A stretch of 61,963 nt of DNA from Candidatus Omnitrophota bacterium (GCA_016929115.1 JAFGJL010000077.1:1-61963), one strand, 5' to 3'. Shown: positions 3,212 to 56,993, numbered from the stretch's first letter. The notes: generated from the letters alone by a model not told the origin. Program-made: numbers and translations.

Positions 3212-4345
3212 ATGAGGATAATATCGATAACCAATCAAAAAGGCGGCTGCGGAAAGACTACGACAGCGATAAACCTGTCAAGCGCGCTGGCCCTGGCGGG
3301 AAGGAGGACCCTTATCATAGACCTTGACCCGCAGGCTCACGCCTCGTTCGGGCTCGGCATAACGAGCCAGCAGGCCGACAAGTCGATATATAACGTCCTC
3401 ACGGAAAACGACGAGAAGAGGCGACCGCTCGAGAGTTGCATCGTCAACGTATCTAAGAAGCTGGACATAGTGCCGTCGAGCATACTGTTGAGCACCCTGG
3501 AACAGGAACTGAAGGACAAGGAAGACGCGGTATCGAAACTGCACAATGTCCTGGTGGGCGCGAACCTGCCTTATGACTACGTCATCATCGACTGCCCGCC
3601 GAGCCTCGGGTTCCTCACCTTCAACGCGCTGAGAGCGGCGGCCCTCATCATAGTCCCGATCGACATGAGCGCGTTCTCGCTTATGGGCGTAGGAAAGCTT
3701 CTTGGCATGCTGGAGCTCATCAACCTCAAGATAGGGCATGTGCCGCGGGTGAAAGCCCTCGCCACGCTTTTCGACAAGAGGACAAAATACTCGCAGACGA
3801 TGTTCGACGAGATCAAGATGTTCTTCAGGGACCAGATGCTGGACTCGGTCATCCGGATGAACGTCGCGCTAAAGAAAGCGGTCCCTGCCGGCGTATCGGT
3901 CATGCAGTTCGAGCCCTACTCGACCGGCGCTTCCGATTACGGCGCGCTCGCCCAGGAAGTCCTCAGGATAGAAGGGGATTCGGAGTTCGAAAAGGCGATG
4001 GCCGAGGTCTCTGCCGAGACACAGGCCCCTGCTCCTATCCCGTCCGTTCCGTCTGTTCCGTCCGTCCCGGCCGCTCCGGCGATCTCTACAGGGGAGGCCA
4101 CGTTCGCTATCGACGCACCGGGCGCCAACGAAGTCTATGTCGTAGGCGATTTCAACAACTGGCAGGTCGGCAGCGACGGCAGGCTTTCGAAAAGCGAGAG
4201 CGGAAGATGGGAGAAACGGCTCGGCCTTTCATCCGGCAAGTACAGCTACAAGTTCGTCGTAGACGGCCAGTGGATCCTCGATACCAACAATGCCGAAAAG
4301 GAACAGAATTCCTTCGGGACTTTCAACTCGGTGCTGAAGGTCTGA
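3212..4345 (+). CDS. ParA/MinD-family ATPase fused to a C-terminal CBM48 / AMPK-beta-type glycogen-binding module
   Basis: Deviant Walker A NQKGGCGKTTTAINLS and ParA-like core to about aa 250. Pro-rich linker with (PSV)x3 at 4040..4066. C-terminus is EVYVVGDFNNWQ...GKYSYKFVVDGQWILD. An AAGGAGG SD lies inside the upstream gene. Confidence 0.8.
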   Translation: MRIISITNQKGGCGKTTTAINLSSALALAGRRTLIIDLDPQAHASFGLGITSQQADKSIYNVLTENDEKRRPLESCIVNVSKKLDIVPSSILLSTLEQELKDKEDAVSKLHNVLVGANLPYDYVIIDCPPSLGFLTFNALRAAALIIVPIDMSAFSLMGVGKLLGMLELINLKIGHVPRVKALATLFDKRTKYSQTMFDEIKMFFRDQMLDSVIRMNVALKKAVPAGVSVMQFEPYSTGASDYGALAQEVLRIEGDSEFEKAMAEVSAETQAPAPIPSVPSVPSVPAAPAISTGEATFAIDAPGANEVYVVGDFNNWQVGSDGRLSKSESGRWEKRLGLSSGKYSYKFVVDGQWILDTNNAEKEQNSFGTFNSVLKV

Positions 4346-5232: not shown

Positions 5233-7032
5233 ATGTCTAAAATGTCAATATATGATGTAATTGTGATAGGCGCAGGGCACGCGGGATGCGAGGCAAGCCT
5301 GGCAGCGGCACAGCTTGGCCGAAAAACTCTCCTTTTGACCATGAATGCCGATTCTATAGGCCTCATGTCCTGTAATCCCTCCATAGGGGGCCTGGCAAAG
5401 GGGCAGCTCGTAAGGGAAGTTGACGCCTTGGGGGGCAGGATGGCGTTGGCGTCAGACCATACCGCGATACAGATAAGGACCTTAAATACCAGAAAAGGGC
5501 CTGCGGTGAGGTCGACAAGAGCCCAGGTAGACAGGCACGCCTACCAGTCATACATGAGATCGGCCGTAGAAAACCAGCCGAACTTGGATATCCGCGAATG
5601 CCTCGCGGAAAGGATCCTGATAGAGAACGGCGCGGTCAAGGGGGTCGAAACATCGCTGAAAGAGGCCTATTTCGGCAAGACGCTCATAATAGCTGCCGGC
5701 ACCTTCCTGAACGGGCTTCTCCATATAGGCCTCGAACATATGCCGGGGGGGAGGATGGGGGAGAGGCCTTCCGAAGGGCTTTCAGGCTCCCTTAAAGAGC
5801 TGGGGCTGACCATGGGCCGGCTAAAGACAGGGACATGCGCCCGGCTGGACGGCAGGACCATCGAGTTCGACAGGTTGACCGCGCAGCACGGAGATGAGGA
5901 CGCCGTACCGTTCTCGTTCCGGACGAAAAAGATATCCGGAAGGCAGCTGCCTTGTTATATCACATATACCAACCAGAAGACGCACGATATAATACTGTCC
6001 AGCCTTGACCGGTCACCGCTGTTTACGGGCATCATAAAGGGTACGGGCGTGCGTTACTGCCCGTCCATCGAAGACAAGATACACCGGTTCCCGCAACGCG
6101 ACAGGCACCATATATTCCTGGAACCCGAGGGCCTCAATACGGTCGAATACTATCCGAACGGCATATCGACCAGCCTGCCGGTGGATGTGCAGGAGGAGAT
6201 CATACATTCCATCGAGGGGCTGGAGCATGCGAAGATCACCAGGCCGGGTTACGGGATAGAGTACGATTTCGCCGACCCCACGCAGCTATATCCTACGCTG
6301 GAGGCAAAGGGCATGCCGGGGTTATACCTGGCGGGCCAGATAAACGGCACGACAGGATACGAAGAAGCGGCAAGCCTGGGGCTTATCGCGGGCATCAACG
6401 CCGCCTTAAAAGTAACGGACAAAGAGCCCTTTGTCCTGGGGCGTTCGGAAGCTTATATCGGCGTGCTTGTCGATGACCTGGTCACCAAGGGAACGAACGA
6501 GCCTTACCGCATGTTCACCTCGCGCGTCGAGTACCGGCTCATCCTGCGCGAAGACAACGCGGACCTGCGGCTTACAGAGTTGGGATACAAGATAGGATTG
6601 ATAGGCCGGGAACGTTACGACCATGTCATGGGAAAAAGGGACCGCATAAAAAAAGAGATGGCCAGGCTCCGGGAAACGCGGGCCGAAAAGGCGCTGAGGC
6701 GCCCCGGCACAAGATATGAGGACATAACAACCGCCGAAGAGCAGACCGGCCTTTCGCCTGAAGAGCGGAAAGAGGTCGAGATCGAGGTCAAATACGAGGG
6801 ATTCATAAGAAGGCAGCTCAGTGAGATCGATCGGTTCAAGAGCATCGAAAAGATAAGGGTTCCCGACGGCTTCGACTACGGGCCGGTCCACGGCCTCTCC
6901 TCTGAGATCAGGGAGAAGCTTTCGCGCATAAGGCCGCTCACCCTCGGCCAGGCATCGCGGATATCCGGCGTAACTCCCGCGGCGATATCGATAATGATGG
7001 TGTATCTGGAGAAAAGACGGCGGAAAGGTTAG
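5233..7032 (+). CDS. mnmG: tRNA uridine-5-carboxymethylaminomethyl modification enzyme MnmG (GidA)
   Basis: N-terminal FAD fold YDVIVIGAGHAGCEA. GidA-family similarity along the full length. Confidence 0.95.
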   Translation: MSKMSIYDVIVIGAGHAGCEASLAAAQLGRKTLLLTMNADSIGLMSCNPSIGGLAKGQLVREVDALGGRMALASDHTAIQIRTLNTRKGPAVRSTRAQVDRHAYQSYMRSAVENQPNLDIRECLAERILIENGAVKGVETSLKEAYFGKTLIIAAGTFLNGLLHIGLEHMPGGRMGERPSEGLSGSLKELGLTMGRLKTGTCARLDGRTIEFDRLTAQHGDEDAVPFSFRTKKISGRQLPCYITYTNQKTHDIILSSLDRSPLFTGIIKGTGVRYCPSIEDKIHRFPQRDRHHIFLEPEGLNTVEYYPNGISTSLPVDVQEEIIHSIEGLEHAKITRPGYGIEYDFADPTQLYPTLEAKGMPGLYLAGQINGTTGYEEAASLGLIAGINAALKVTDKEPFVLGRSEAYIGVLVDDLVTKGTNEPYRMFTSRVEYRLILREDNADLRLTELGYKIGLIGRERYDHVMGKRDRIKKEMARLRETRAEKALRRPGTRYEDITTAEEQTGLSPEERKEVEIEVKYEGFIRRQLSEIDRFKSIEKIRVPDGFDYGPVHGLSSEIREKLSRIRPLTLGQASRISGVTPAAISIMMVYLEKRRRKG

Positions 7033-7108
7033 CGTATAGCGTATAGCGTTTAGCGTATAGGAAAGACAAAATTTTTACTATACGCTATCCGCTAAACGCT
7101 CGACGCTA
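7030..7108. repeat. REP-like palindromic element, copy 1 (TAGCGTW heptamer arms)
   Basis: Left arm tagcgtatagcgtatagcgtttagcgtatag (7030..7060). 17-nt loop. Right arm ctatacgctatccgctaaacgctcgacgcta (7078..7108). 26 of 31 positions are complementary. The first TAG is the mnmG stop codon. Confidence 0.9.
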
Positions 7109-7124
7109 GAAATCCATTCATCAC

Positions 7125-8084
7125 ATGCGCCTATACAACGATTATAACTCATACTTAAGGGAAAAATACGGCTGCAAGGTATACCGTATCGGCCTCGACG
7201 CGGGATTCTCGTGCCCAAACCGCGACGGGACAAAAGGTTTCGGCGGATGCATCTACTGCAACGAGGAGGGCTCACGAGCTTCCTACGCGGATCCGGCATT
7301 ATCCGTCGCAGAGCAGTTAAGGTCGCGGATAAAAAAACTCAGGGAAAAGAACGGCCCTAAAAAATACATAGCGTACTTCCAGGCCTTCACCAATACCTAC
7401 GCGCCCGCCAAGGAGCTGAGGCCCATATACGACCAGGCGGCGTCTAACGACGTCGTAGGCATATCGATAGGGACGCGGCCGGACGCGATAGACCTCGCCA
7501 AGCTGGAGCTTATAGCGTCATACAAAGACAGATATGAAGTGTGGATAGAATACGGCCTGCAGTCGGCCCACGACAAAACGCTTCTTGCTTTACAGCGGGG
7601 ACATACGTTCGCGGATTTCGCGAACGCCGTGCACCTGACGAAGAGGTTCGGTATCTCCGTCTGCGGCCACGTGATATTGGGCCTGCCCGGAGAGACCGCG
7701 GCGGAGATGATGGAGACGGCCGACAAGCTCAGCGAGCTAAAAGTCGACGGGGTGAAGATACACCTCCTGCACATCCTGAAGGGGAGCAGGCTCGAGCAGC
7801 TATACGCGGGCGGGAAGATACGGCTTCCTGAACAGGATGAATACGTGGAGCTGGTATGCGATTTCCTGGAACGCCTTTCGCCTGACATCGTCATACAGCG
7901 GCTGACAGGGGAGGGGACGCGTGAGAAACATGTAGCCCCGCTCTGGGCACTGGACAAGCTGGGAACGATAAAGAAGATAGAGGAGACGTTAAAGAAAAGG
8001 GGGAGCCGCCAAGGTACGAGTTTTGAGGCGGCCTTTAATCCAAAAATCAAAATCCAAAGATCAAAATTACATATAAAAACCTAA
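7125..8084 (+). CDS. TIGR01212-type radical SAM protein
   Basis: CPNRDGTKGFGGCIYCN cluster motif and a radical-SAM core. The C-terminal tail KIKIQRSKLHIKT is unusual. Confidence 0.8.
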   Translation: MRLYNDYNSYLREKYGCKVYRIGLDAGFSCPNRDGTKGFGGCIYCNEEGSRASYADPALSVAEQLRSRIKKLREKNGPKKYIAYFQAFTNTYAPAKELRPIYDQAASNDVVGISIGTRPDAIDLAKLELIASYKDRYEVWIEYGLQSAHDKTLLALQRGHTFADFANAVHLTKRFGISVCGHVILGLPGETAAEMMETADKLSELKVDGVKIHLLHILKGSRLEQLYAGGKIRLPEQDEYVELVCDFLERLSPDIVIQRLTGEGTREKHVAPLWALDKLGTIKKIEETLKKRGSRQGTSFEAAFNPKIKIQRSKLHIKT

Positions 8085-8103
8085 AATTTTTGAATTTTGA
8101 TCT
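8058..8103. terminator. AT-rich hairpin between convergent genes (possible bidirectional terminator)
   Basis: agatcaaaatt (8058..8068) is the exact reverse complement of aattttgatct (8093..8103). It overlaps the 3' ends of both ORFs. Confidence 0.4.
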
Positions 8104-9322
8104 ATATCCTGGTCCCGTCCTTGATCACGGCGTTCTTGGGGACGATCACAATGCCGTCCCGTATAAAGTAACCATCGCCGTCAAACTGCCTCAATCCTTT
8201 CGCATTCCTTATCACGACGTTCCTGCCTATGCGCGCGTTCTTATCCACGATAGCCTTCTCTATGACGGAATTATCGCCTATGCCTGTCTTGACGGCGGCC
8301 GTGCTTTTGGCGTCTTCGTAATAATCTGCGCCCATGACCACCGTCCTGGCTATCTTGCAACCCTTTCCTATAGTGGTCCTCAAACCTATGACCGAATCCG
8401 TTATCTGGGCATTCTCTATCACGCTTCCTTCGGCTATGATAGCCCTGCGGATCTTGCACGTATCAAGTATCCTGGGAGCCGGTAAAAATCGGGGCCTGGT
8501 AAAGACCGAACCGCCGTAGAAGGCCGAGAACTGGGACCTTGACAGCGCCATCTCTATGTTGGCGTCGTAGAAAGACCTTATCGTCCCTATATCCCTCCAA
8601 TAACCGTGGAAGGAATACCCGTAGCCGCTGAACTTCTTTATAGAATGAGGGATGACCTCGCGGCCGAAATCTATATCGTTGCCTTCCAGGACCTTGGACA
8701 GGATGCGCGCATTGAAGATATAGACGCCCATCGATGCCAGATAAGAGCCTTTGTGCTTCAGCCCTTTTAATTCAGCGACGGCCTTGGGCTTTTCCCTGAA
8801 ACCGGTTATCCTATCATCGGCGCCGAGCTTCATGATGCCGAACTCTTTCGTCTCGCTCGCCCTGACAGGGAAGACCGACAGGCTAAAGTCGGCCTTCTTC
8901 TTCCTGTGAAAATTGATGAAATCCCGGTAGTCCATATCATAGAGATGGTCGCCCGAGAGTATCAATATATCCTCATTGCCCTTAAGCTCAAGATGCATTA
9001 TGTTGCGCCTGACCGCGTCGGCCGTGCCCTGGAACCAGACCGCGCTGTCGATCGTCTGTTCGGCGGCAAGGATCCTGACAAAGGCCCTGGAGAAATAGTC
9101 GAACCGGTAGGTATTATTGATATGGTTGTTGAGCGACTCCGAATTGTACTGCGTCAGCACGTAGATGTCTTTTATATTGGAGTGGAGGCAGTTCGAGATG
9201 GGTATGTCGATCAGCCGGTATTTGCCCCCTATGGGGACGGCCGGTTTGGAGCGGTACATAGTAAGCGGAAAGAGGCGTTTTCCCTGTCCGCCTCCGAGAA
9301 TCAGCGCCACGACCCTTTTCAT
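8102..9322 (-). CDS. glgC: glucose-1-phosphate adenylyltransferase
   Basis: N-terminus LILGGGQGKRLFPLTMYRSKPAVPIGGKYRLIDIPISNC and a C-terminal left-handed beta-helix region. Confidence 0.9.
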   Translation of the reverse strand: MKRVVALILGGGQGKRLFPLTMYRSKPAVPIGGKYRLIDIPISNCLHSNIKDIYVLTQYNSESLNNHINNTYRFDYFSRAFVRILAAEQTIDSAVWFQGTADAVRRNIMHLELKGNEDILILSGDHLYDMDYRDFINFHRKKKADFSLSVFPVRASETKEFGIMKLGADDRITGFREKPKAVAELKGLKHKGSYLASMGVYIFNARILSKVLEGNDIDFGREVIPHSIKKFSGYGYSFHGYWRDIGTIRSFYDANIEMALSRSQFSAFYGGSVFTRPRFLPAPRILDTCKIRRAIIAEGSVIENAQITDSVIGLRTTIGKGCKIARTVVMGADYYEDAKSTAAVKTGIGDNSVIEKAIVDKNARIGRNVVIRNAKGLRQFDGDGYFIRDGIVIVPKNAVIKDGTRI

Positions 9323-9343
9323 ATCATATTTCCTTTTTTAAAA

Positions 9344-9352
9344 ATTATATCA
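9344..9352 (-). promoter_or_regulatory. candidate extended -10 promoter (TGaTATAAT) for glgC
   Basis: The minus strand reads tgatataat, then tttttaaaaaaggaaatatgat and the ATG. Confidence 0.4.
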
Positions 9353-9470
9353 TAAGTACCCTCAAAAACAAGGATTTTAATACTCTTGGCATTAGCGCCG
9401 ATAAGATCAAGGATGCGGCCGACCTGGTAAAGACGATAGCGAACAGGTCGAAATAAATCTAGCCCGGGTA

Positions 9471-9499
9471 TTGCAAATGCCGGGTTTTACAGGTATACT
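9471..9499 (+). promoter_or_regulatory. sigma70-type promoter TTGCAA-17-TATACT
   Basis: -35 at 9471..9476, 17-nt spacer, -10 at 9494..9499. Located about 28 nt upstream of the mini-ORF start. Confidence 0.5.
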
Positions 9500-9526
9500 T
9501 TAGGACGCTAAAAAAAAGAGGTGCGT

Positions 9527-9583
9527 ATGTGCAAGACCTGCGGAGCCCATAAGAAGAAAGGGAAGAAGAAAAAGAAGAAATAG
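9527..9583 (+). CDS. 18-aa peptide MCKTCGAHKKKGKKKKKK (below the ORF-track length cut-off)
   Basis: AAGAGG SD 5 nt before the ATG. Promoter upstream and intrinsic terminator downstream. 10 of 18 codons are Lys. Confidence 0.45.
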   Translation: MCKTCGAHKKKGKKKKKK

Positions 9584-9621
9584 GCGTTCCTTGTTAGAAT
9601 AGCGGTTTTTAATATTTATAA

Positions 9622-9664
9622 GCCCCGCCAAATCCATAAAGGTCCTGGCGGGGTTCGTATTTTA
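9622..9664 (+). terminator. rho-independent terminator after the mini-ORF
   Basis: ccccgcca (9623..9630) pairs with tggcgggg (9646..9653), followed by ttcgtatttt. Confidence 0.65.
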
Positions 9665-10228
9665 GGGGCAGAAATAAAGCTCCCGATAGGATCTGATGTC
9701 GGCCATGAAACCGCCTTTTAAACACGCGCCAGGATAGCCCTAAACACTCAAAACAGGCCCAAGAGCGAGACTTCGCAGCCATTACAGGGAAAGAGGCCGT
9801 CCATAATGGGCCGCGAAGCAATAAAAAGAAATAGAGCAAAATAGCCGTTCGATGTGGACGCCAAAAATACCTGCCGGTAAACCGGAAGCAGTGCCTGAAC
9901 AAAAGTACACTTATCAACAGGAAATTCATACATATATATAACTATATGAGGGACAGCGTGTTGCGTGTTTTATTTCCATCTTGGCTAGTTAACATAAGAT
10001 ATATTATAGGACGTTACCGAATAGGCTAGCTTGGGCTATATTGTCTCTATGGGTCCTTCCGGGATGGCTCTTGTGGGGATTCTGGCGCGGTGTTGCGCCC
10101 TTTTATGGATTGGTAACTATCCTCCGATACCCAAGAAAATGAACGGATTCGGTATCGGTATGCTGGCACAGCCAGCCGCACTAAATATCATTATAGCCAG
10201 GCAACCATATATCAGGAACCTTATCAGT

Positions 10229-10528
10229 TTATGGCTCAAGTTTAAAGTATCCGCCTTTGATACGGATTATCTTTCCTTTAACAAGAGCTTCAGCCAGGCA
10301 CTTGCGGGCCTTCTTTAAAACCCTTGAAAAAGTCTGTTGGCTGACCCCCATAAAGAGCGCCGCTTCGGCCTGGCTTAAGTCCAACTGGTCGGCCAGCCTG
10401 ATCGCCTCGCGCTCTTCGAGCTTCAGCTCTATATGGTCAGGCCTTCCAACCTTGCCGCGCGGGCTGAACTGCCTTATCTTGGGCTCGTCTTTTATGACCC
10501 GTTGCTTTACAGGACGCCCTTTTGACAT
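10229..10528 (-). CDS. DUF134 (UPF0251) family predicted DNA-binding protein
   Basis: GRPVKQRVI...FSPRG...LKLEEREAIRLADQLDLSQAEAALFMGVSQQTFSRVLKKARKCLAEAL matches the DUF134 pattern as I remember it. Confidence 0.7.
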   Translation of the reverse strand: MSKGRPVKQRVIKDEPKIRQFSPRGKVGRPDHIELKLEEREAIRLADQLDLSQAEAALFMGVSQQTFSRVLKKARKCLAEALVKGKIIRIKGGYFKLEP

Positions 10529-10582
10529 GATCGCCCACCGCTATTTAAATACCTATTTTAGAAAAATTATCCACACCTTATC

Positions 10583-10602
10583 TTATGAGTATATACTCAT
10601 AA
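10583..10602. promoter_or_regulatory. perfect 20-bp palindrome upstream of the DUF134 gene (candidate operator)
   Basis: ttatgagtat|atactcataa is exactly self-complementary. It lies 55-74 nt upstream of the start codon and contains TATACT. Confidence 0.4.
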
Positions 10603-10617
10603 ATATGCATAAAAAAA

Positions 10618-10983
10618 TTAGAAGTTCTTGTCCTTGAATATCTCATCGATCTGCCGCTGGATGTCCTCCATATCCCTGGCTTCCTCTTTCCATCTGTCCC
10701 AGTGGGCCGTAACGAGATCCTCTGCCTCCAGGATGAGCGGCTTAAAATCTATGTTGAGCTCTTTGGAGAGGAAATCCATGGATGTCAAAAGGACGACGAT
10801 CCATTTTTCCCGCTCATTGAGCTCCTCAAAGATGATGTCGAATATCTTCTTTATCTGCTTCCTGTCCTTTTGGATATCTTTTTCCGCCCTTTCGACCCTC
10901 TTCTTTAGGCGGGCCAAGGCCTTATCGGCCTTTTTTGTCCCGGCGCCCATGGATGACACCTTCTTTCCTTTGAGATCTCCCAT
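10618..10983 (-). CDS. hypothetical charged / coiled-coil-like protein
   Basis: ORF with K/E/R-rich heptad-like sequence. Its start abuts the stop of the upstream membrane-protein ORF. Confidence 0.55.
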   Translation of the reverse strand: MGDLKGKKVSSMGAGTKKADKALARLKKRVERAEKDIQKDRKQIKKIFDIIFEELNEREKWIVVLLTSMDFLSKELNIDFKPLILEAEDLVTAHWDRWKEEARDMEDIQRQIDEIFKDKNF

Positions 10984-11295
10984 CTAACGGCTCGGACCTT
11001 TCATGAAAACCTTAAAAAGCCATATGGCTGTCCTAACGACCAGATAGAGAAAATAAAGCAAAAGCAGCGCGATAGGATATACCAGCATCGAGAAACGTTC
11101 GGACTTATCGTAGATGAAGGTATCATTCGCCCACATGACAACAAGGCCTATGGCGATGATCAGGATAAAACCGGCGTTCTTCCTTACAAAGAGGCCTATC
11201 TTTCCAAATAAGCCGCTGCCAGGAACGTTCTTATCCATGCCTATCCCCTCCCTTGCCCCGTTTGCGCTAACGGGTAGCGAAAGGCTTAAGGACAC
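10984..11295 (-). CDS. hypothetical small membrane protein (2 predicted TM helices)
   Basis: Hydrophobic stretches FILIIAIGLVVMW and VYPIALLLLYFLYLVV. The true start may be the internal Met at 11238. Confidence 0.5.
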   Translation of the reverse strand: MSLSLSLPVSANGAREGIGMDKNVPGSGLFGKIGLFVRKNAGFILIIAIGLVVMWANDTFIYDKSERFSMLVYPIALLLLYFLYLVVRTAIWLFKVFMKGPSR

Positions 11296-11357
11296 TTAAC
11301 CCGATGTGAGGGCGCGCTTATAACTTTCTCTTATCCTAATACGAGACGCAGCGGATT

Positions 11358-11525
11358 TTAATTTGCGCCCTCCTGTGAATTCTCCGCGACAAACTTCTTT
11401 ATCTCGTCGATATTGTCCAGGATCATCCTCGCCTTGGAAAGGCCGAAAGAGAACGGATATTTATCGTTCTCATCCCTTCTTATGATCAACACCGGCTTAC
11501 CCTTAAATTCGCCTCTTTCAACCAT
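11358..11525 (-). CDS. unlisted 55-aa ORF (MVERGEFKGKPVLIIRRDENDKYPFSFGLSKARMILDNIDEIKKFVAENSQEGAN)
   Basis: AAGGAG lies 6 nt upstream of the ATG. It overlaps the 3' end of the upstream gene by 8 nt. Below the ORF-track length cut-off. Confidence 0.5.
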   Translation of the reverse strand: MVERGEFKGKPVLIIRRDENDKYPFSFGLSKARMILDNIDEIKKFVAENSQEGAN

Positions 11526-12390
11526 CGCTAGCTCCTTCTTTTTTATTGACCAGCACCGCCGTTATCTTTGTAAAAAGCGGCGCCTTGACCATGCCATACA
11601 CGGGAATCCGCAAATTATCGCACGAAAAATAACAGCTCGCGTTCCCTTTCTTCACCCGCTCCCCTTTCAGAACGGCGTACGGCTCCACATAGAACGTCTC
11701 GTACGTAACGTTGTCCAGCTTGATGAACGCCTTCTTTTCGATGAGCCCGAAGAGATTATAGACCTCCTCGTTGTTCACCACCGTATATCCCACCTTCTGC
11801 CCGACGTACGCGTCTACCGTCCTGAAGTAATACGCGGCGCTCAGGGAATCCTGTACGTCGCCGGGTATATCGAACGTCTTCCGGGAGCCGTCACACAGAT
11901 TATGAAAATAGGCCTTCTTCGCATTGTAATCGAAGACCGTGACGGCGTCCTTCTTATATCTCCCCTCCCTTCTCCTGACCACATGCTTAAGGCTCACATA
12001 CCGCTCTTTGTCGATATATGAGAGGTAGGTATCATCGACAGGATATATCTTTGAGCAAAAAGCGTTCGTCCTGGCGGTGAGCTCGACCACATACGCTTCC
12101 CTGCCTTCAAGGCGCTCGATGCCTTTTACGCGCGCCACCACCGTGGCGACCGGGATGCCGAGCCATGCCACTTCATAGGTAAGCTCTTCCCCGACCCTGA
12201 ACGGCGCGGCCGCCTTTTCGATCGCGATGTCCTTAGCCAGGATCTTGCGGTCTGCCGCAACGACAGAACCCTTGACGACCGCGGCCTTCGATGCGGCGCA
12301 CCCGGCCGATATGAGCGCAAGCAACACGCACCATCCTAGGACGCGGTAAAGCGCAACCCGATCGTTCTTTGATATACCCATATGATCCAT
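11518..12390 (-). CDS. DUF3108-like lipoprotein (tentative)
   Basis: Lipobox-like LLALISAGC. Beta-rich body resembling DUF3108 proteins. The start overlaps the upstream gene by 55 nt, so start choice is uncertain. Confidence 0.55.
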   Translation of the reverse strand: MDHMGISKNDRVALYRVLGWCVLLALISAGCAASKAAVVKGSVVAADRKILAKDIAIEKAAAPFRVGEELTYEVAWLGIPVATVVARVKGIERLEGREAYVVELTARTNAFCSKIYPVDDTYLSYIDKERYVSLKHVVRRREGRYKKDAVTVFDYNAKKAYFHNLCDGSRKTFDIPGDVQDSLSAAYYFRTVDAYVGQKVGYTVVNNEEVYNLFGLIEKKAFIKLDNVTYETFYVEPYAVLKGERVKKGNASCYFSCDNLRIPVYGMVKAPLFTKITAVLVNKKEGASDG

Positions 12391-45297: not shown

Positions 45298-45365
45298 TAG
45301 CGTTTAGCGTGGAGCGTATAGCGTTTAGTTCTTTCTATACGCTAAACGCTATCCGCTATACGCTA
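45298..45365. repeat. REP-like palindromic element, copy 3 (groES-groEL spacer)
   Basis: Left arm tagcgtttagcgtggagcgtatagcgtttag. The two arms are separated by a short ttcttt loop. Right arm ctatacgctaaacgctatccgctatacgcta. 25 of 31 positions are complementary. The terminal CTA is the groES stop codon. Confidence 0.9.
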
Positions 45366-45650: not shown

Positions 45651-45702
45651 ACCCTACACCTCCTTTTTGTTTTTAACTAACAACTGGCAACTAGCAACTG
45701 AA

Positions 45703-45729
45703 TTAGCACTCACTTCTATCGAGTGCTAA
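45703..45729. promoter_or_regulatory. CIRCE operator (HrcA binding site)
   Basis: TTAGCACTC-N9-GAGTGCTAA is a perfect match to the consensus. It lies between the promoter and groES. Confidence 0.9.
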
Positions 45730-45738
45730 CAAAAGAGT

Positions 45739-45766
45739 ATTATACATCACGCGCAAAAGTTGTCAA
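45739..45766 (-). promoter_or_regulatory. consensus sigma70 promoter TTGACA-16-TATAAT for groESL
   Basis: Read on the minus strand, immediately upstream of CIRCE. Confidence 0.6.
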
Positions 45767-45780
45767 GGATTTTTTTGCTC

Positions 45781-45829
45781 CCCCGTCATTGCGATGAGTC
45801 CCGCCACAGGCGACCGACTAAGCAATCTA
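45781..45829 (-). repeat. short repeat (AGATTGCTT...CGCAATGACGG core), copy 1, downstream of the giant gene
   Basis: The reverse complement reads tagattgcttagtcggtcgcctgtggcgggactcatcgcaatgacgggg. It shares both end blocks with copy 2 at 51775..51816. Confidence 0.7.
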
Positions 45830-45833
45830 AAAA

Positions 45834-45875
45834 ATAGGGACAGATACCGTTTAAACAACCGGTTGCTGTCCCTAT
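45834..45875 (-). terminator. intrinsic terminator after the giant gene
   Basis: atagggacag pairs with ctgtccctat. TTTTTT follows on the minus strand. Confidence 0.75.
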
Positions 45876-45888
45876 TTATTCTTAAATT

Positions 45889-48800
45889 TTAATTTGAAGT
45901 CAGGCTTTGTGTCTGTGGCGGGTTCGCCAGTTGAGTAGAATACGTGAAATTGCCCGTATTGGAATTAGTTTGCGATAGCTGGCTCTCGATGCTCATTCGT
46001 GCGAGGGTTTCTGGGTCAAGATTATCCTGGCGCTTCCACTCATCTTTGGGAAGATCTATTAGATAAATTTGTTCATCGTATGGGTTACCACCGTTTCGAC
46101 ATTGCCACAGAGCTGCTCCATCGCTCATTTGAGGCGGCATGGGAGAATTTGTAAAGGGATAATCTAAGCCAAAACTATGAACTGAATATCCATCATAATA
46201 ATACCCCTGTGCCCCTCCACTTCCCATGCCATACCACACAAATTTACCATCATCTAAGCAAGGAGTTCTATCATAGAACCAATCCTCATAATCGTTATTT
46301 GTGATTTGACGTGTAACTGATCCATCATACAAAAATATTTCGTCGTCATTACCGTCATTTTCATTCCAAATAATTTGGCCGTCATCAAGAGCAAGTGAGA
46401 CATATTCTCTGGGGGGCAGGCCGCTGGATAGTTCCCTACTCACGCTTGCAATTTTTTTAATGTCTTGGCCATCATAAAAGATTAAATCAATCTTTTCTTG
46501 GTCTATAAAATATCGCCCAAAAGGATGGTCTGACGGATCGGGTCTTTTATAAGTTGCGCTCCATGCTATTTGGCCGTTGCTTATTTGTGGAAACACATCA
46601 TCATAATCATTATTCGTTAATTGTCTAACGTCAGTTCCATCATACCAATATATCTCTTTGTCATACCCATCAAAACCTTCCCAGACAACATTACCTAGTT
46701 CATCAACATCCACTTGGAACACATACTTACATAGCCCATTGGTCAAATTTTTTACTTGATTTCCATCATAAAGAAAAATATCGCCGTTTCTATCAAATGC
46801 TCTGTCATATGTGCATACTCTGTTCGAGGACCAAGAGAGATATTTACCGGCACTCACAAGATATTCTTTATAATAGTCATCGTTCGTTATTTGAGTAGCG
46901 CTCATGCCATCGTAGACATAAATTTGGCTATTTTTATAACCGCTGAATTGCTGCCAGGGATTCGGCCCCCAAATCGTCCCATATTCGTAATATCGCCATG
47001 CCACATATTGGCTACTTTCACCAAATAATATAGGATCAGATGCGAATTGAACTCCTCCGTAAACACCACCATCGGAGAAATAGCCATTGTCGCATAACTG
47101 GTCAATGTTGGTTCCATCATAAAAGTAGATATTTGTCGGTGTGGTAATGCCGTATCGAGCGGCGTCTTCGTTTTCATGTTGCCACCAAACTACTTTGCCA
47201 TTTGCCAAATATGGACTATGAACATTTGACGCTATATACTGCGGCGTCCCGATAACCCCCTTTTCAAACGTCCACACCGTCCCATCATCCAGCATCTTTT
47301 TGATAAGCATGCCATCATCATCATATTCCTCGTAAATTGAATCACCAATCTCAACGCTACTCTTAATCTTCCACTTATAATGGATTGTGTTCCCATTTTC
47401 CCAATACTCGATTGCAGACTGAACCTTTCCATCGGCCCCGTAAAAACGTTCCTTATGCTTCGTGGAACCGTCGCCACGATATTCGTATTCATGATGAGAG
47501 CCATCTGTGTAACGCTTTTCTACAATATGCCCCTTACTGTCATAGGTAATGATGTTTCCGTCTTGCCCATACACGACTCGTTTTATCATAATTTTCGATG
47601 CAACATAATACCGCTCTTCCATCTTGGAGTTTGAGCTGCCCCAATATGATATAGTCATGTAATCACCATTTCCCAAAATCCTTTTAATCAGCTTACCCTC
47701 ACTATCGTATTCGCAAATGCCACCGTCAGCAAGGACTTTGGTATACAAATTATATGAAGCGTTATTTAAATATGGGCTTGAACTAGAAAGCTTTGTCCAG
47801 CTTCCATTGGAGTATTTGTAAAGGCCGTATGCGGCGCCGTAGTCGACAATGAGATTGCTTCCCGAGAGCGTAATCGATTCCGGATTTGCTGTGCTTAGTT
47901 TGGTCCATTTGCCGCTGGCGTATTTCCATAAGCCAAGGGAGCCGAAGTCAGCTATTAGATCGGTTCCGCTTATGGTTATGAACTCAGAATTCGATGAGCT
48001 CAGCTTTTTCCATGTTCCTGAGGAGTATTTGTATAAGCCTAAAGAACCAAAATCGACGAAGAGGTCGCTATTTAAGGCTACAAGTGATTCGGGGTTCGAA
48101 GAGGCGATCTTAGTCCACTTGCCTAAGGAATACTTGTAGAGGCCTAAAGAACCGAAATCAACTATAAGGTCATTGCCCGAAAGTGTTAGTGAGTCGGGGC
48201 TTGCGGAGCTTAGTTTCGTCCATTTGCCCGAAGAGTATTTGTAAAGGCCGGTGGAGCCAAAGTCTACTATAAGGTCACTGCCATAGACTAACATTGATTC
48301 CGGATTTGCAGTGCTAAGCCTATTCCATGCCCCTGCGGAGTATTTATATAGACCCAAAGATCCAAAATCTACGAAGATGTCACTGCCTAATGCTATTAGT
48401 GAGTCCGGGCTTGCGCTGCTAAGTTTTGCAAAGGTGTTTCCGGCATATTTATATAGCCCGAGGGAGCCATAGTCAATAAAGAGAGTATCACCTAATGCGA
48501 CCATCGATTTGGGGTTTGCGCTGCCAAGCTTTTTCCATGCGCCTGCGGAATACTTGTAGAGACCCAAAGAGCCGAAGTCCACATATAGGTCAGAGCCCAA
48601 AGCTACCATCGATTCTGGACTTGAGCTGCTAAGCTTTTTCCATGCGCCTGAGGAATATTTATAAAGGCCCAAAGTGCCGAAGTCGATGAATAGGTCACTT
48701 CCCACTGCCACGATCCTCTGCCCCTCTTCTGCCCTCATCTCATAATTATACGTCACTAAGAGGTTGGTAAAATCGGAGTTCTGGTAACACAGTTTCTTGC

Positions 48801-51426
48801 TGACTTTATCCGTGCCGGTGAAGTATTCGTATATATAGGCTATAGCGCCATCGCCATCAGGAGATGCGAGGATTTGCTTGTATGCCCTGGCATATCCCTG
48901 GCCATTGTAATTTTCATCAAGGTATTCGTAATATATGCATCCGTCTGTATCCGGAGTAGCTAGGGTCTTGGATTTTACCCTGTTATCATTATTAAGGTAA
49001 TGGGTGAATACTATGCTGCCGTCACCTGTGGTCTTCTTCTCCAGGAGGCCGTTACCATTATATTCAAAGGTAGCTACAAGGTTTGATAATATGGGATTGG
49101 ATGGGTCTGTGCTGTAATCCGCAGTTCCGTAGCAGTATTTTATGCGCACGACTTTTGAGTTTTCGTGGTAAGCGTATTGGTATGCGATGCTTCCATCTGA
49201 AGCAACTACCTCTTTAACCTCTTTATCCGGCCTTCCGTGGCCCTGGCCACCCCAATCCTCATCAAGGAAATGGCGGTAAATGTTGCCGTTAACATCTGGC
49301 TTGATAGAGATTATGTATTTCTTTCTCCTCGACTCGTAGTAGGTGGAATCTAGAACAACTGCATACGATAAGTCATCGATACTGAAACTGTCATAAGCCG
49401 ACGGCTGAATAACCATCCTGGAAATGTTGCTTCCACCGATATTTATGAAACGCAGCACTCTATCATAGTACCAATCCCAAGGTGTACCATCAGGGGCTAA
49501 TGCGCCATCCATAGGATATGTTTGCACAAAGGTTCCGAGAAGATTACCATAGCTATCATATGTAGTTACTGTGGTATCGTGAAAAGTCCCTGTCAGCCAA
49601 AAACTAACCTGTTCAACTGGAGTATCAAAAAGCAGCGAGAAGCTCGTTTTCTGCATCGGAACCCATGGCTGGTCTCCCCAAACAGATAGCTTATTTGGGC
49701 CCGAGTAAGCATTCCCAAAGCCATCCGTCAATTGCTTAGTTACCTGCAGATGCCCTCCGGTATATGTACTTATAGTCACATCTCCAAAATGTGTGATATC
49801 TCCATAATCTCCCAATGCTAAATCATCAAAATTTATTAAGGTAGCCGGGAGTATCTTTTTTACAAGCGCTCCTTGTATATCATATTCATACGTAGCAACT
49901 AAATCCGAAAATGCCGGGTTTGACGGATCAGTATTGTAATCTGCGGTCCTATAGCAGTATTTTATGCGGGCAACATTACTGTTTTCGTGATAGAAATATT
50001 GATACGCAATGGCACCATCCGGATCGGCCACTTGCTTCACTTCTTTGTCAACCCTCCCCCGATTCTCATTATTCCAATCCTCATCAAGAAAATGGCTGTA
50101 GATGTTGCCGTTGGTATTGGGTTGTATGGTAATAATGTATTTCTTTCTATTTGATTCGTAATAGGTGGGATCGGGCTCAGTATCGCCTATATCTATGGAA
50201 AAGATCGTGCCCCATCCGTATTCCCCTCCCCACTGGGTAGTGCCATAGAGCTTTCCTTCAGGGCCCATAAATAAGCTAGCGAAGGGGCTATCTCCGTCAA
50301 TGCCATTGAATGTATACAATGTTCTAAAATCACTTCCATCTGAATTTATGGAAAAAATTGTACCATAATCGTTATATCCGGTTTCTTGTAGGTCTGGACC
50401 GCCAATGCCCTCACCACTGGTCGTACCATAAAGCTTACCTTGGGAGTCCATAATTAAACCGCCGAAGGGGCTATTCCCTTCGGTCACATCGAATGTGTGC
50501 AACGTTCTATAGTTGCTTCCGTCTGAATTCATAGAAAAAATCGTACCACACTTGTCATCTCCCCCGGCCCAGGCCGTACCGTAAAGAACGCCTTGAGAAT
50601 CCATTATTAAGGTGGCGTGGGCGCTTTGGCCCTCACCCTCATTAAATGAGTGTAACGTCCTATAGTTACTTCCGTCTGAATCTATAGAATAAATAGCACC
50701 CCAACCGTAGGCTCCTCCGGAAGCGGTTGTACCATAAAGCGTACCTCGCGAGTCCATTATTAAGGTAGTGAGGGGTGAAGATGTTACGCCATTGTTGAAT
50801 GAGTATAATGTTGTAAAATTACTCCCGTCAGAATCTATGGAAAAGACTGTGCCATAACCGTAATCTCCTCCTCCTGGTGTCGTACCATAAAATTTACCCT
50901 GGAGGTCTCTTACTAAACCGCCGAAGGGTGGAACTCCCGGAATAGTAAATGAGTGTATTATGCTGTAATCATTTCCATCTAAGTCCATGGAAAATATTGT
51001 ACCGCCATTGTAAGCTCCCCCCCATTGGCTCGTACCATAAAGCGTGCCAAGTGGGTCCACGATTACGCTTGAGAAACAAGGATGATGCCCCATGGTCTCA
51101 TCAAATGAAAGTATTGTCGTAAAATTACTTCCGTCTGAATCAAAGGAAAAAAACGTGCCCCATCCGTAAGCTCCTCCATGACCGGTTATTCCATAAAAAT
51201 TACCTTGATAGTCCATAAATAAACTGCTGCTGGGGTAATATCCGTCTGTCTTATTAAAACTATGTATTAAAGTATATTGATACTCGGCATAAGATGGGGC
51301 CGAGACCATTACCATCATCGAAACCATCACAACTCCAGTAGCTATAGTTGATAGTTTTCTAAGTATCGTCCCCACCCCTCGCAGATTTTGGAGTTCCGTT
51401 ATAGTACTACGATAGTCTGATTTCAT
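45889..51426 (-). CDS. 1,845-aa secreted multi-repeat protein (GloVer-like repeats, duplicated modules, 9x35-aa array, YD-like repeats, C-terminal propeller-like repeats)
   Basis: Single long ORF with a GAGGAG SD. Hydrophobic signal-like segment ending APSYA. See the findings for domain detail. Visibly lower G+C than the flanks. Confidence 0.9.
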   Translation of the reverse strand: MKSDYRSTITELQNLRGVGTILRKLSTIATGVVMVSMMVMVSAPSYAEYQYTLIHSFNKTDGYYPSSSLFMDYQGNFYGITGHGGAYGWGTFFSFDSDGSNFTTILSFDETMGHHPCFSSVIVDPLGTLYGTSQWGGAYNGGTIFSMDLDGNDYSIIHSFTIPGVPPFGGLVRDLQGKFYGTTPGGGDYGYGTVFSIDSDGSNFTTLYSFNNGVTSSPLTTLIMDSRGTLYGTTASGGAYGWGAIYSIDSDGSNYRTLHSFNEGEGQSAHATLIMDSQGVLYGTAWAGGDDKCGTIFSMNSDGSNYRTLHTFDVTEGNSPFGGLIMDSQGKLYGTTSGEGIGGPDLQETGYNDYGTIFSINSDGSDFRTLYTFNGIDGDSPFASLFMGPEGKLYGTTQWGGEYGWGTIFSIDIGDTEPDPTYYESNRKKYIITIQPNTNGNIYSHFLDEDWNNENRGRVDKEVKQVADPDGAIAYQYFYHENSNVARIKYCYRTADYNTDPSNPAFSDLVATYEYDIQGALVKKILPATLINFDDLALGDYGDITHFGDVTISTYTGGHLQVTKQLTDGFGNAYSGPNKLSVWGDQPWVPMQKTSFSLLFDTPVEQVSFWLTGTFHDTTVTTYDSYGNLLGTFVQTYPMDGALAPDGTPWDWYYDRVLRFINIGGSNISRMVIQPSAYDSFSIDDLSYAVVLDSTYYESRRKKYIISIKPDVNGNIYRHFLDEDWGGQGHGRPDKEVKEVVASDGSIAYQYAYHENSKVVRIKYCYGTADYSTDPSNPILSNLVATFEYNGNGLLEKKTTGDGSIVFTHYLNNDNRVKSKTLATPDTDGCIYYEYLDENYNGQGYARAYKQILASPDGDGAIAYIYEYFTGTDKVSKKLCYQNSDFTNLLVTYNYEMRAEEGQRIVAVGSDLFIDFGTLGLYKYSSGAWKKLSSSSPESMVALGSDLYVDFGSLGLYKYSAGAWKKLGSANPKSMVALGDTLFIDYGSLGLYKYAGNTFAKLSSASPDSLIALGSDIFVDFGSLGLYKYSAGAWNRLSTANPESMLVYGSDLIVDFGSTGLYKYSSGKWTKLSSASPDSLTLSGNDLIVDFGSLGLYKYSLGKWTKIASSNPESLVALNSDLFVDFGSLGLYKYSSGTWKKLSSSNSEFITISGTDLIADFGSLGLWKYASGKWTKLSTANPESITLSGSNLIVDYGAAYGLYKYSNGSWTKLSSSSPYLNNASYNLYTKVLADGGICEYDSEGKLIKRILGNGDYMTISYWGSSNSKMEERYYVASKIMIKRVVYGQDGNIITYDSKGHIVEKRYTDGSHHEYEYRGDGSTKHKERFYGADGKVQSAIEYWENGNTIHYKWKIKSSVEIGDSIYEEYDDDGMLIKKMLDDGTVWTFEKGVIGTPQYIASNVHSPYLANGKVVWWQHENEDAARYGITTPTNIYFYDGTNIDQLCDNGYFSDGGVYGGVQFASDPILFGESSQYVAWRYYEYGTIWGPNPWQQFSGYKNSQIYVYDGMSATQITNDDYYKEYLVSAGKYLSWSSNRVCTYDRAFDRNGDIFLYDGNQVKNLTNGLCKYVFQVDVDELGNVVWEGFDGYDKEIYWYDGTDVRQLTNNDYDDVFPQISNGQIAWSATYKRPDPSDHPFGRYFIDQEKIDLIFYDGQDIKKIASVSRELSSGLPPREYVSLALDDGQIIWNENDGNDDEIFLYDGSVTRQITNNDYEDWFYDRTPCLDDGKFVWYGMGSGGAQGYYYDGYSVHSFGLDYPFTNSPMPPQMSDGAALWQCRNGGNPYDEQIYLIDLPKDEWKRQDNLDPETLARMSIESQLSQTNSNTGNFTYSTQLANPPQTQSLTSN
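47767..48711 (-). repeat. nine tandem 105-bp (35-aa) coding repeats
   Basis: Consensus approximately (V/T)(A/L).G(S/N)DL.VDFGSLGLYKYS.G.W.KLSS.(S/N)PES(M/L), aa 906..1220. Confidence 0.9.
50191..51276 (-). repeat. seven tandem ~50-aa GloVer-like coding repeats
   Basis: Recurring ...(L/F)YGTT..GG.YG.GT(I/V)FS(I/M)(D/N)SDGSN(F/Y).(T/I)L(H/Y)SF..., aa 51..412. Confidence 0.75.
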
Positions 51427-51645
51427 TTTTAGTCTCCTCGTTCAGCAGTTTTTAATTTCTAAATAAAAACTAATACCAAAGCCAAATAGATCTTTTTGTC
51501 TTTCCCTTGAAATATTTGATTTGTAGATGGTAAGTTCTTTTCTAAAACAGTGTTATTGGTAGTGAAAAATAGTATTGCAAACTACACTGCGGTTCCTACG
51601 GCTGCAGAGAAATGAGATGATGACTGCAGAATAGAATATGGATTA

Positions 51646-51673
51646 AGTATAGCACGCTTTTTTGTTAAGTCAA
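51646..51673 (-). promoter_or_regulatory. sigma70-type promoter TTGACT-16-TATACT for the giant gene (about 210-nt leader)
   Basis: Read on the minus strand, at 51668..51673 and 51646..51651. Confidence 0.45.
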
Positions 51674-51774
51674 TAGAAAGAGAGCTGTCTTTTTTTTGAC
51701 TAACCGGCTATACTTTATTAGATCACGCGTCAGTTCGCTTGTTGGTAGTGACCGGTTTATTTAGATGCGCCAGA

Positions 51775-51816
51775 TAGATTGCTTCGCCCGTTCGGGGCTC
51801 GCAATGACGGTGGGGG
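51775..51816 (+). repeat. short repeat (AGATTGCTT...CGCAATGACGG core), copy 2, upstream of the giant gene
   Basis: tagattgcttcgcccgttcggggctcgcaatgacggtgggggt. It is in inverted orientation relative to copy 1. Confidence 0.7.
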
Positions 51817-51820
51817 TGGT

Positions 51821-52110
51821 CTTTTAAAGATGTTGCGAGCGGCTTGTTGCATTTTTTCGGCATAGCGCTATTTCGTGCGGTGCGCAAGGATTTACGGCGA
51901 GCGAATGCAAAAACTGACCTCATTAGCTATCGACCGGCTGGGAATTTTTGCCTGACTGCCGTCAGGCAGGCGAATGAGCGAGCCGTTCCCGCCCTCGGTA
52001 AGACCCTGGCGGGATCCCGCCATGAGTTGCTTAAAGTCGGGTGTAGGCGGGAAAACCGTAGCGCACGGCGAAAAAATGCCAAGCCGCGAGCAACTCTTTA
52101 AAAGAGATTG
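51821..52110 (+). mobile_element. MITE-like element, copy A (long imperfect terminal inverted repeats, no ORF)
   Basis: The ends cttttaaagatgttgcgagcggcttgttgcattttttcgg and gcgaaaaaatgccaagccgcgagcaactctttaaaag are inverted repeats. The body is near-identical to copy B. Confidence 0.75.
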
Positions 52111-56738: not shown

Positions 56739-56993
56739 TGATTTTGTTCCTGCGGCTCGGAATTTTTTCGCCGTGCGCTGCGGTTTTCCCGCCTGCACCC
56801 GACTTTAAGCAACTCATGGCGGGATCCCGCCAGGGTCTTACCGAGGGCGGGAACGGCTCGCTCATTTGCAAAAATTCCCAGCCGGTCTGGTAGCTGATGA
56901 GGTCAGTTTTTGCATTCGCTCGCCGTAAATCCTTGCGCACCTCGCCTCCGGTAGCGCTATGCCGAAAAAATTCAACGAGCCTGGGAACAAAAT
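56739..56993 (-). mobile_element. MITE-like element, copy B (inverted relative to copy A)
   Basis: The reverse complement aligns with copy A. I see only two substitutions over the roughly 105 nt from aatgagcgagcc to ggcgaaaaaat. It lacks the 21-nt hairpin insert of copy A. Confidence 0.75.

Follow-up and report, generated by a model that had tools for sequence, protein, structure and literature searches.

A foreign single-gene cassette in an Omnitrophota housekeeping cluster encodes a predicted exported repeat mosaic, a candidate adhesin

The 61,963-nucleotide contig JAFGJL010000077.1:1-61963 of Candidatus Omnitrophota bacterium (GCA_016929115.1), the whole stretch of DNA that was analysed and referred to below as the window, carries a single large gene of unusual composition between coaX and groES. 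This raises the question of where the gene came from and what its product, a protein assembled from several kinds of repeats, could do for the cell. The gene forms a single-gene cassette that was gained by horizontal transfer. As to its function, we lean towards a Sec-exported, non-enzymatic, all-beta string of binding modules that would act as an adhesin or cell-contact factor, a role inferred from the domain content, from the fusion partners of relatives and, by analogy, from the proposals made for large Omnitrophota surface proteins.

Coding sequence and foreign origin

The two features that define the locus are the following.

45889..51426, minus strand: complete coding sequence including the stop codon, 1,845 aa (open reading frame (ORF) list and translation)
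45830..51760: low-GC island comprising the gene and its 34% GC leader, between coaX and the groES promoter (GC profile)

The 1,845-codon ORF is unbroken on the minus strand, and the ORFs that overlap it in other frames reach at most 96 aa. A plus-strand reading of the same interval was rejected, its translation being full of stops. The original prediction of an ORF of this length at this place is therefore borne out, the strand, which it did not state, being minus. The repeats were mapped by fragment-versus-self BLASTP, hidden Markov models (HMMs) of the single units and a direct listing of repeats, and the repeat classes and positions first proposed were reproduced by the BLASTP comparison. 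Misassembly of repeat-containing reads, a risk raised from the outset, is rejected. At the DNA level the repeats are old: within the gene no exact repeat exceeds 20 nt, the 35-aa units described below have a mean nucleotide identity of 57% to one another, and between the first two copies of a longer unit, module A, synonymous sites are saturated (pS, the proportion of synonymous differences, 0.86) and non-synonymous sites conserved (pN 0.19), indicating purifying selection on a protein and differing from what repeat reads that were collapsed or wrongly joined would produce. The evidence thus points to a real coding sequence rather than an assembly artefact.

No full-length homologue was found among 5.8 billion proteins, where the protein is a singleton, and Pfam and NCBIfam profile searches, while confirming one of its domains, returned no family covering the whole of it. 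The complete architecture is unique in the databases searched, yet a large secreted repeat mosaic gained by horizontal transfer is a familiar kind of protein.

The gene has a GC content of 0.434 and a GC content at third codon positions (GC3) of 0.427, as against GC3 values of 0.656-0.811 in the 29 other genes of the window, and all of its segments are low (GC3 0.35-0.51). It is flanked by dnaE, guaB3, groEL and groES on one side and by coaX, birA, uvrB, nadC and valS on the other, all on the same strand; the rest of the window consists of housekeeping genes too, and the CoaX of the contig is up to 61% identical to that of Candidatus Omnitrophota metagenome-assembled genomes, which assigns the contig to this phylum. 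The gene order (nadC-)uvrB-(birA-)coaX-groES-groEL, usually continued by guaB3-dnaE, is kept in 14 Omnitrophota loci, in which coaX and groES are separated by 130-530 nt versus 6.46 kb in the window, and none of the 14 has a relative of the protein at this site. Environmental loci that do encode related sequences have GC contents mostly of 0.42-0.50, which fits a lower-GC donor lineage. The split coaX-groES junction and the GC3 values strongly support the initial view of a compositionally foreign cassette, and the gene is regarded as horizontally acquired.

Module architecture and relatives

The protein is divided as follows, from the N-terminus to the C-terminus.

51286..51426, minus strand: signal-like N-terminus, aa 1-47 (read by eye from the translation)
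50188..51276, minus strand: seven GloVer repeats (TIGR03803) of about 50 aa each, aa 51-413 (NCBIfam, self-similarity)
49855..50172, minus strand: module A copy 1, aa 419-524 (unit HMM, E 2.9e-37)
49351..49854, minus strand: unique all-beta insert of 168 aa, aa 525-692 (homologue P0121)
49033..49350, minus strand: module A copy 2, aa 693-798 (fragment-versus-self BLASTP, unit HMM)
48733..49005, minus strand: module A copy 3, aa 808-898 (fragment-versus-self BLASTP, unit HMM)
47767..48711, minus strand: nine tandem 35-aa repeats, aa 906-1220 (fragment-versus-self BLASTP, repeat listing, AlphaFold2)
47227..47727, minus strand: YD/MORN-like beta-hairpin repeats, a linker, aa 1234-1400 (Pfam)
46117..47217, minus strand: seven to eight degenerate TIGR04275-type repeats, aa 1404-1770, units from about 1433 (phmmer, unit HMM)
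45892..46116, minus strand: polar tail with no transmembrane segment, aa 1771-1845 (translation)
45916-45957, minus strand: shared tail motif TGNFTYSTQLANPP, aa 1824-1837, 8 residues before the stop (comparison of C-termini)

The first 47 residues comprise a charged 24-aa n-region (R16, R23, K24), an h-region from L25 to A43 and the APSYA ending already recognised in the original prediction, after which comes EY (E48). As read by eye, the S-Y-A that precedes E48 would suit the small residues at -3 and -1 of a signal peptidase I site, and the protein is a candidate for Sec export with cleavage after APSYA.

The seven repeats that follow had been assigned at first reading to the GloVer type, correctly so: TIGR03803 matches aa 51-413 in seven stretches with 284.9 bits (cut-off 44; E 7.5e-87), making the N-terminal domain a member of a known, functionally uncharacterised family. 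A whole-protein search of the same 5.8 billion proteins returned 2,144 relatives. The matches listed cover about 16-23% of the query, which corresponds to the GloVer region, and the remaining 80% of the protein is not shared with any of them. Like other GloVer proteins, in which the array is combined with Ig, cadherin, PKD, FN3, SLH, T9SS or PEP-CTERM modules, this one is a large mosaic, predicted to be secreted, that joins bona fide repeats, here seven in the N-terminal 363 residues, to unrelated extracellular modules. It differs in that the motif, judged by motif count, spans most of the length of many relatives and only the first 20% or so here, and in that the anchors of those relatives (T9SS PF18962, SLH PF00395, PEP-CTERM PF07589) are absent. 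Such a 'choice of anchor' C-terminal sorting signal is typical of TIGR03803 and is not obligatory. A sequence search of the PDB with the GloVer part found no related solved structure, and the literature search found no paper using the names TIGR03803, Gloeo_Verruco or GloVer-containing; that the domain is a propeller is assumed from its seven-fold repeat.

Module A, of about 90-100 aa, has the consensus TYY.S..L.SKTL..PD..GNIYYHY.DEDW.GQGYGR.D......PD.DGAIAY.Y.Y......K..Y.......L..TY.Y. Copies 1 and 2 share 70% identity. The module had been described as present twice with a third, partial copy; the two full copies stand, whereas the third is complete according to the unit HMM, albeit diverged, sharing 35-45% identity with the other two. 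No relative of module A was found in Pfam, NCBIfam or the PDB, profile search of the latter included, and a PDB sequence search with the entire non-GloVer part gave nothing usable. A relationship between module A and the YD-like segment was considered and rejected, as profile comparison shows no similarity.

Between copies 1 and 2 lies, as predicted, an insert. It is 63% identical to a standalone protein of 267 aa (P0121, L021:1038-1841) that has a signal peptide of its own and ends in a PEP-CTERM-like sequence (VPAPGAVILGSIGITFSGWLLHKRRML), which makes the insert an autonomous extracellular domain able to take its own anchor. Domains of this type thus occur in both an anchored (P0121) and an embedded form. 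The insert matches nothing in Pfam or NCBIfam. An AlphaFold2 model of aa 414-905, built from a five-sequence alignment, is poor (pLDDT, the predicted local distance difference test score, 44.7) and all-beta. Its best-modelled part is the insert, for which Foldseek retrieves the jelly-roll carbohydrate-binding modules (CBMs) 8x8h and 8wc1 (TMt 0.52-0.56) as well as CBM4, CBM6, CBM22 and CBM61, a mere hint at a jelly roll like that of carbohydrate-binding modules.

A metagenome scan seeded with module A recovered 38 loci. In whole-protein tblastn comparisons, an array of module A followed by a 35-aa-type array, colinear with aa ~695-1215 at 24-35% identity, recurs in L029, L046, L050, L052 and L054/L055, while module A precedes C-terminal-type repeats in L038 and YD-like sequence in L037. 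The closest locus, L024 (GC 0.40), is 74% identical to module A copy 1 (70% by whole-protein tblastn). Because arrays of module A and of 35-aa units recur together across loci, the middle third of the protein can be assigned to an environmental family that recurs and as yet has no name, and that also includes the proteins P0122-P0124. Members match FG-GAP, with 88 bits for the L050 protein, as well as a right-handed beta-helix, CBM30 and a GH2 TIM barrel, so that in some of them the family is linked to polysaccharide-active domains. The members of the family lack the GloVer array and, mostly, the C-terminal TIGR04275-type propeller found here, and some add beta-helix, CBM30 or GH2 modules. Several of them have another N-terminal signal, F-L-W-E-Q-x-x-W-A-G, which in the form F-[LF]-W-[EDQ]-Q-x-x-W-A-G stands right behind the hydrophobic segment in L037, L046, L049 and L050 and is absent from the window protein. 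In P0123 the units of module A are broken at one fixed position by beta-helix-like inserts, and in the L050:7722-16160 protein, which exceeds 2,800 aa, module A occurs together with FG-GAP repeats, CBM30 and the GH2 TIM barrel. The contigs carrying P0121, P0123 and P0124 are short, and nothing informative was found in their genomic context. Looking up the clusters of the relatives yielded a single taxonomic name, probably the product of mis-binning.

The nine 35-aa repeats occupy aa 906-1220, exactly where they had been placed, and a propeller reading holds for them as well. The AlphaFold2 model of the array (pLDDT 85.6, predicted TM-score 0.78) has exactly 36 strands, four per repeat, and Foldseek matches it to beta-propellers only among PDB entries (TMq 0.31-0.54), including eight-blade designer proteins, BamB, PorZ and the BT4663 sensor. 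The best reading of the model is a nine-blade propeller with unusually short blades and a presumed closed ring. A word-indexed search found nine relatives. Three of these, P0275, P0278 and P0280, share the DFG..GLW.Y..G.W..L core and have a D-x-D-G-D-G loop, and are annotated as FG-GAP or VCBS (PF01839/PF13517 in P0275); P0276 and P0277 lack the loop, as does the window protein, in which the calcium-binding D-x-D-x-D-G loop is absent from all nine repeats. The array thus resembles the integrin-alpha type FG-GAP/VCBS repeats (PF01839, PF13517) in its core and in its predicted four-stranded blades, and differs from them in the deletion of the calcium-binding loop, which leaves blades of 35 residues, and in the prediction of nine blades instead of seven. 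No direct FG-GAP match was obtained in Pfam, where Tectonin and HVO_0234 propeller matches stayed below threshold, and the profile of the array retrieved nothing usable, hence no solved relative, from the PDB sequences. Pfam matches to HTH_CHD1, DUF5878 and WWE_3 in the array were dismissed as chance, since they score no higher than their cut-offs, no stretch passes alone and all lie within repeats.

The YD-like repeats noticed at first sight are present, though marginally so and with no RHS core. Pfam gives RHS_repeat 24.0 bits (cut-off 22) at aa 1368-1388 and DUF2963 24.4 bits (cut-off 22.6), MORN_2 falls below its cut-off, and a second weak RHS_repeat match lies at the end of module A. The segment looks like generic beta-hairpin repeats and not like an RHS shell.

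The C-terminal repeats follow the motif EIFLYDG..V.QLTNNDYDD..PQIS.G.I.W in units of 42-69 aa that contain inserted loops. Searched exhaustively with HMMER, aa 1221-1845 have 1,864 relatives (best E 3e-82), and phmmer retrieved P0158 (E 6.8e-41) and P0171 (E 3.6e-39). Both pass TIGR04275 (beta_prop_Msarc; cut-off 85 bits), with 126.8 and 101.7 bits, as does P0141 with 151.6 bits. The copy in the window protein is degenerate in comparison: its C-terminal 446 aa have no NCBIfam match at E <= 0.1, TIGR04275 included, and reach no Pfam threshold. The profile of the C-terminal family matches the designed six-blade Pizza propellers (Pizza6, E 1.3e-5) and the PH0594 propeller (E 9e-4) in the PDB. In agreement with the propeller first suspected here, the repeats probably form one of seven to eight blades, as judged by homology. 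The 35-aa and C-terminal arrays are both divergent derivatives of known propeller repeat families. P0158 and P0171 end in PEP-CTERM signals, in contrast to the polar tail of the window protein, and other relatives are fused to polysaccharide deacetylase or, in one case, to DUF6531 and RHS; P0137 has a DCSG-type, NlpC/P60-like end as read by eye, for which NCBIfam gives only 12 bits. A set of relatives made up of PEP-CTERM proteins and enzyme or RHS fusions is what would fit a surface-displayed targeting module.

Neither a known anchor nor an enzyme was found. The tail (...NFTYSTQLANPPQTQSLTSN) has no hydrophobic helix and no basic end, unlike PEP-CTERM/exosortase signals, and no PF07589 match; PF07589, PF18962, TIGR04183, SLH and LPXTG signals are missing even at permissive E-values. 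Catalytic families are likewise absent, from Pfam at E up to 10 and from NCBIfam at E up to 1, in line with the original prediction. A TLD match in Pfam (24.3 bits against a cut-off of 24.5, with no stretch passing alone) and matches to DUF1348 (Pfam) and PGF_pre_PGF (NCBIfam), at or below their cut-offs, all lie within repeats and were set aside as chance.

The claim that the protein has no anchor stands as regards PEP-CTERM, LPXTG and T9SS signals, and is qualified by a motif in the tail that recurs in at least three related proteins. The pattern G-[GN]-[FY]-[TS]-[FYQ]-[ST]-x(1-3)-[LM]-A-[NDG]-x-P, located 8-11 residues before the stop, was derived from the same four sequences in which it occurs, namely the window protein, P0124, L028 and L054/L055. 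Weaker versions occur in L033 and L041, and no further instance was found in the window, in the 282 retrieved proteins or in 61 loci translated in six frames. The domain that precedes the motif varies, being the TIGR04275-type propeller here, the 35-aa array in L054/L055 and module A in P0124; its constant position at the extreme C-terminus despite these differences, a behaviour known from sorting signals, suggests a C-terminal tag. A tentative extension of this idea, which we would sooner doubt than adopt, is that the ~40-residue tail (...E..A.RMS.ES.L.Q...G-[GN]-...) represents a new sorting, secretion or docking tag, free of transmembrane segments, of an unnamed surface family. That family may be built from module A (~95 aa) and the loop-less blade of 35 residues derived from FG-GAP, neither of which is classified. 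If this were true, the protein taken up by the Omnitrophota host would rely on a matching partner for its export or attachment, or would exploit one.

Flanks of the island

The following features accompany the gene.

51646..51673, minus strand: promoter-like TTGACT-16-TATACT with TG before the -10 hexamer (extended -10), within the 34% GC leader, about 220 nt upstream of the ATG (consensus scan, 10/12)
51434..51439, minus strand: GAGGAG, a ribosome-binding site 7 nt upstream of the ATG (sequence)
45829..45880, minus strand: hairpin terminator AAATAGGGACAG ... CTGTCCCTATTTTTT, directly past the stop codon (inverted repeat I5)
51841..52087: 245-nt element resembling a miniature inverted-repeat transposable element (MITE), beside the island, with terminal inverted repeats of about 30 nt; second copy at 56752-56981

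The stem of the terminator resembles the coaX terminator of the related locus L001, suggesting that the insertion took place just upstream of a native terminator. Beyond the island, groES keeps a perfect TTGACA-16-TATAAT promoter (45739-45766), followed by a CIRCE operator, TTAGCACTC-N9-GAGTGCTAA (45700-45730), an arrangement found likewise in L001-L004.

The two MITE-like copies are in inverted orientation and about 96% identical, with the ends GCGGCTTGGCATTTTTTCGCCGTGCGCTA ... TAGCGCTATGCCGAAAAAATGCAACAAGCCGC, and a 20-nt hairpin is found in copy 1 in addition; the element has a folding z-score of -3.6 and corresponds to no Rfam family. Together the copies flank the coaX-birA-uvrB-nadC block, and the nadC-valS gap measures 586 nt versus 14 nt in L003. 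Short palindromes occur at both edges of the island, at 51778-51806 and at ~45787-45830 (CGTCATTGCGAG...CGAAGCAATC and a diverged inverted copy), and could be hairpins like repetitive extragenic palindromes or remnants of insertion. No integrase or transposase is present.

A few further observations concern the window and its relatives. The arms of a 42-nt inverted repeat of TAGCGTATAGCG-type units, 88% complementary, lie at 7030-7071 (after mnmG) and at 45324-45365 (in the groES/groEL gap). A second stretch of lower GC (0.47-0.48), at ~8000-12000, contains only small ORFs, of which the one at 10229-10528 looks by eye like a small DNA-binding protein. An unusual combination is seen at 3212-4345, where one protein joins a ParA/MinD-type ATPase to an AMPK1_CBM glycogen-binding module. 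In the Omnitrophota locus L009 (6265-9894), uvrB matches in two pieces about 1.7 kb apart, aa 1-46 at 6265-6402 and aa 45-652 at 8071-9894, and the split could be due to an intein, an intron or an insertion.

Proposed role and significance

According to the mechanism proposed, a cassette with promoter-like hexamers, ribosome-binding site, ORF and terminator was taken up into the Omnitrophota chromosome, and its product, judging by its N-terminus, would be exported via Sec. The exported protein would present, in order, the seven-repeat GloVer domain, a stalk of three module A units carrying one globular beta domain, the nine-blade mini-propeller, the YD/MORN-like hairpin linker, the TIGR04275-type propeller of seven to eight blades and the polar tail with its family-specific motif. 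It would then bind multivalently to polymers on the surface of other cells or of particles, which are probably glycans or belong to the envelope, and would be displayed at the surface or released without a known covalent or transmembrane anchor.

Omnitrophota are ultra-small bacteria that have not been cultivated and probably depend on hosts, and large surface proteins have been proposed to mediate their adhesion (PMC10066038; bioRxiv 10.1101/2023.11.21.568195). The giant proteins described from this phylum (Seymour et al. 2023, PMC10066038; West-Roberts et al. 2023, bioRxiv 10.1101/2023.11.21.568195), which have been suggested to adhere to prey or host and to bind carbohydrates, resemble the protein described here, predicted to be extracellular as well, in being repeat proteins with few annotated domains. 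They are defined by ORFs of more than 20-30 kb and multiple transmembrane helices, whereas the present gene is of 5.5 kb and encodes a single, N-terminal hydrophobic segment, its 1,845-aa product being 10-80 times smaller. The gene also differs from those of the giant proteins in that no type II secretion or pilus genes adjoin it in this window and in that it is demonstrably foreign to its genome.

Several points weigh against an exported adhesin or cell-contact factor. No secretion-system gene was found among the neighbours within the 62-kb window, a result which, taken together with the lack of a known anchor, leaves passage through the outer membrane unexplained. As to how the protein might cross, or be retained at, the outer envelope, the one clue comes from the shared tail motif. 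The 19-residue hydrophobic stretch at the N-terminus could be an uncleaved membrane anchor instead of a signal. About 500 residues, those of module A and the insert, belong to no family and may harbour a cryptic activity, and the low confidence of the model of this middle region is what reduces the CBM-like reading of the insert to a hint. Also, promoter-like matches such as the one listed above are consensus matches only, and are as numerous in the region as in shuffled sequence.

Four alternatives were weighed, none of which is favoured by the data. It is unlikely that the protein is a structural component of an S-layer-like envelope or coat, or a released matrix protein, with propellers that serve self-assembly or attachment to the cell's own envelope and no recognition of other cells. 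All-beta repeats, a signal-like N-terminus and the lack of enzyme domains fit such a role equally well, TIGR04275 was defined on archaeal surface proteins and has PEP-CTERM proteins among the relatives found here, the C-terminal tail could dock to the cell's own envelope, and V. archaeovorus has been described with a giant-protein 'coat' (PMC10066038). A core component of this kind would, however, be expected to occur in related genomes and to have host-like codon usage, whereas this gene is absent from the 14 syntenic sites, has a foreign GC3 and encodes a singleton.

Nor do we think it likely that the protein is the targeting part of a factor that degrades polysaccharides or cell walls, in which the insert, the GloVer domain or module A would be hydrolytic or lytic towards prey or substrate. 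Such a role is brought to mind by the polysaccharide deacetylase fusions and the NlpC/P60-like end of P0137 among relatives of the C-terminal repeats, and by the relative of the central part that bears CBM30 and a GH2 TIM barrel. Omnitrophota giant proteins have been implicated in cell-wall degradation (bioRxiv 10.1101/2023.11.21.568195), and some propellers are enzymes, virginiamycin B lyase being among the Foldseek matches of the 35-aa model. The enzymatic domains of the relatives are, however, separate and recognisable modules that are absent from the window protein, in which permissive thresholds reveal no hydrolase, lyase or peptidase family.

It is very unlikely that the locus is non-functional, either as a chimeric assembly with foreign DNA placed between coaX and groES or as a very recent acquisition without a role. 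Its composition is extremely unlike that of its flanks, a repeated MITE-like element stands beside one junction and the protein is a singleton, all of which speak for such a case. A chimera would, however, require mis-joins at two places that lead back to precisely the next gene of a conserved cluster, and the terminator at the downstream junction resembles that of coaX in L001. A 5.5-kb ORF has moreover stayed intact in AT-rich DNA behind a ribosome-binding site, and its duplicated modules show purifying selection, though this selection is possibly older than the transfer.

Finally, an RHS/YD polymorphic toxin, or a delivery vehicle for one, is rejected despite the marginal and weak RHS_repeat matches and the relative with DUF6531 and RHS repeats, as the YD-like stretch is only ~170 aa long and has no profile similarity to module A, the RHS core model NF041261 is not matched, the C-terminus is a probable repeat propeller and a polar tail and not a toxin domain, and the gene is adjoined by groES and coaX and by no immunity gene.

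Metagenomes very commonly contain large secreted repeat proteins of unknown specificity, and as nothing in this one changes thinking on how such proteins work, its general significance is modest. Four unclassified building blocks deserve family models of their own: module A, the insert with its PEP-CTERM-associated homologue, the 35-residue mini-blade propeller and the tail motif. For the biology of the Omnitrophota, surface proteins are the main candidates for the means by which these bacteria touch their hosts. If the adhesin or cell-contact reading is right, this gene would provide a compact and tractable example, with 1,845 aa as against tens of thousands in the giant proteins, and would suggest that contact proteins can arrive as ready-made single-gene cassettes, even within a core housekeeping cluster.

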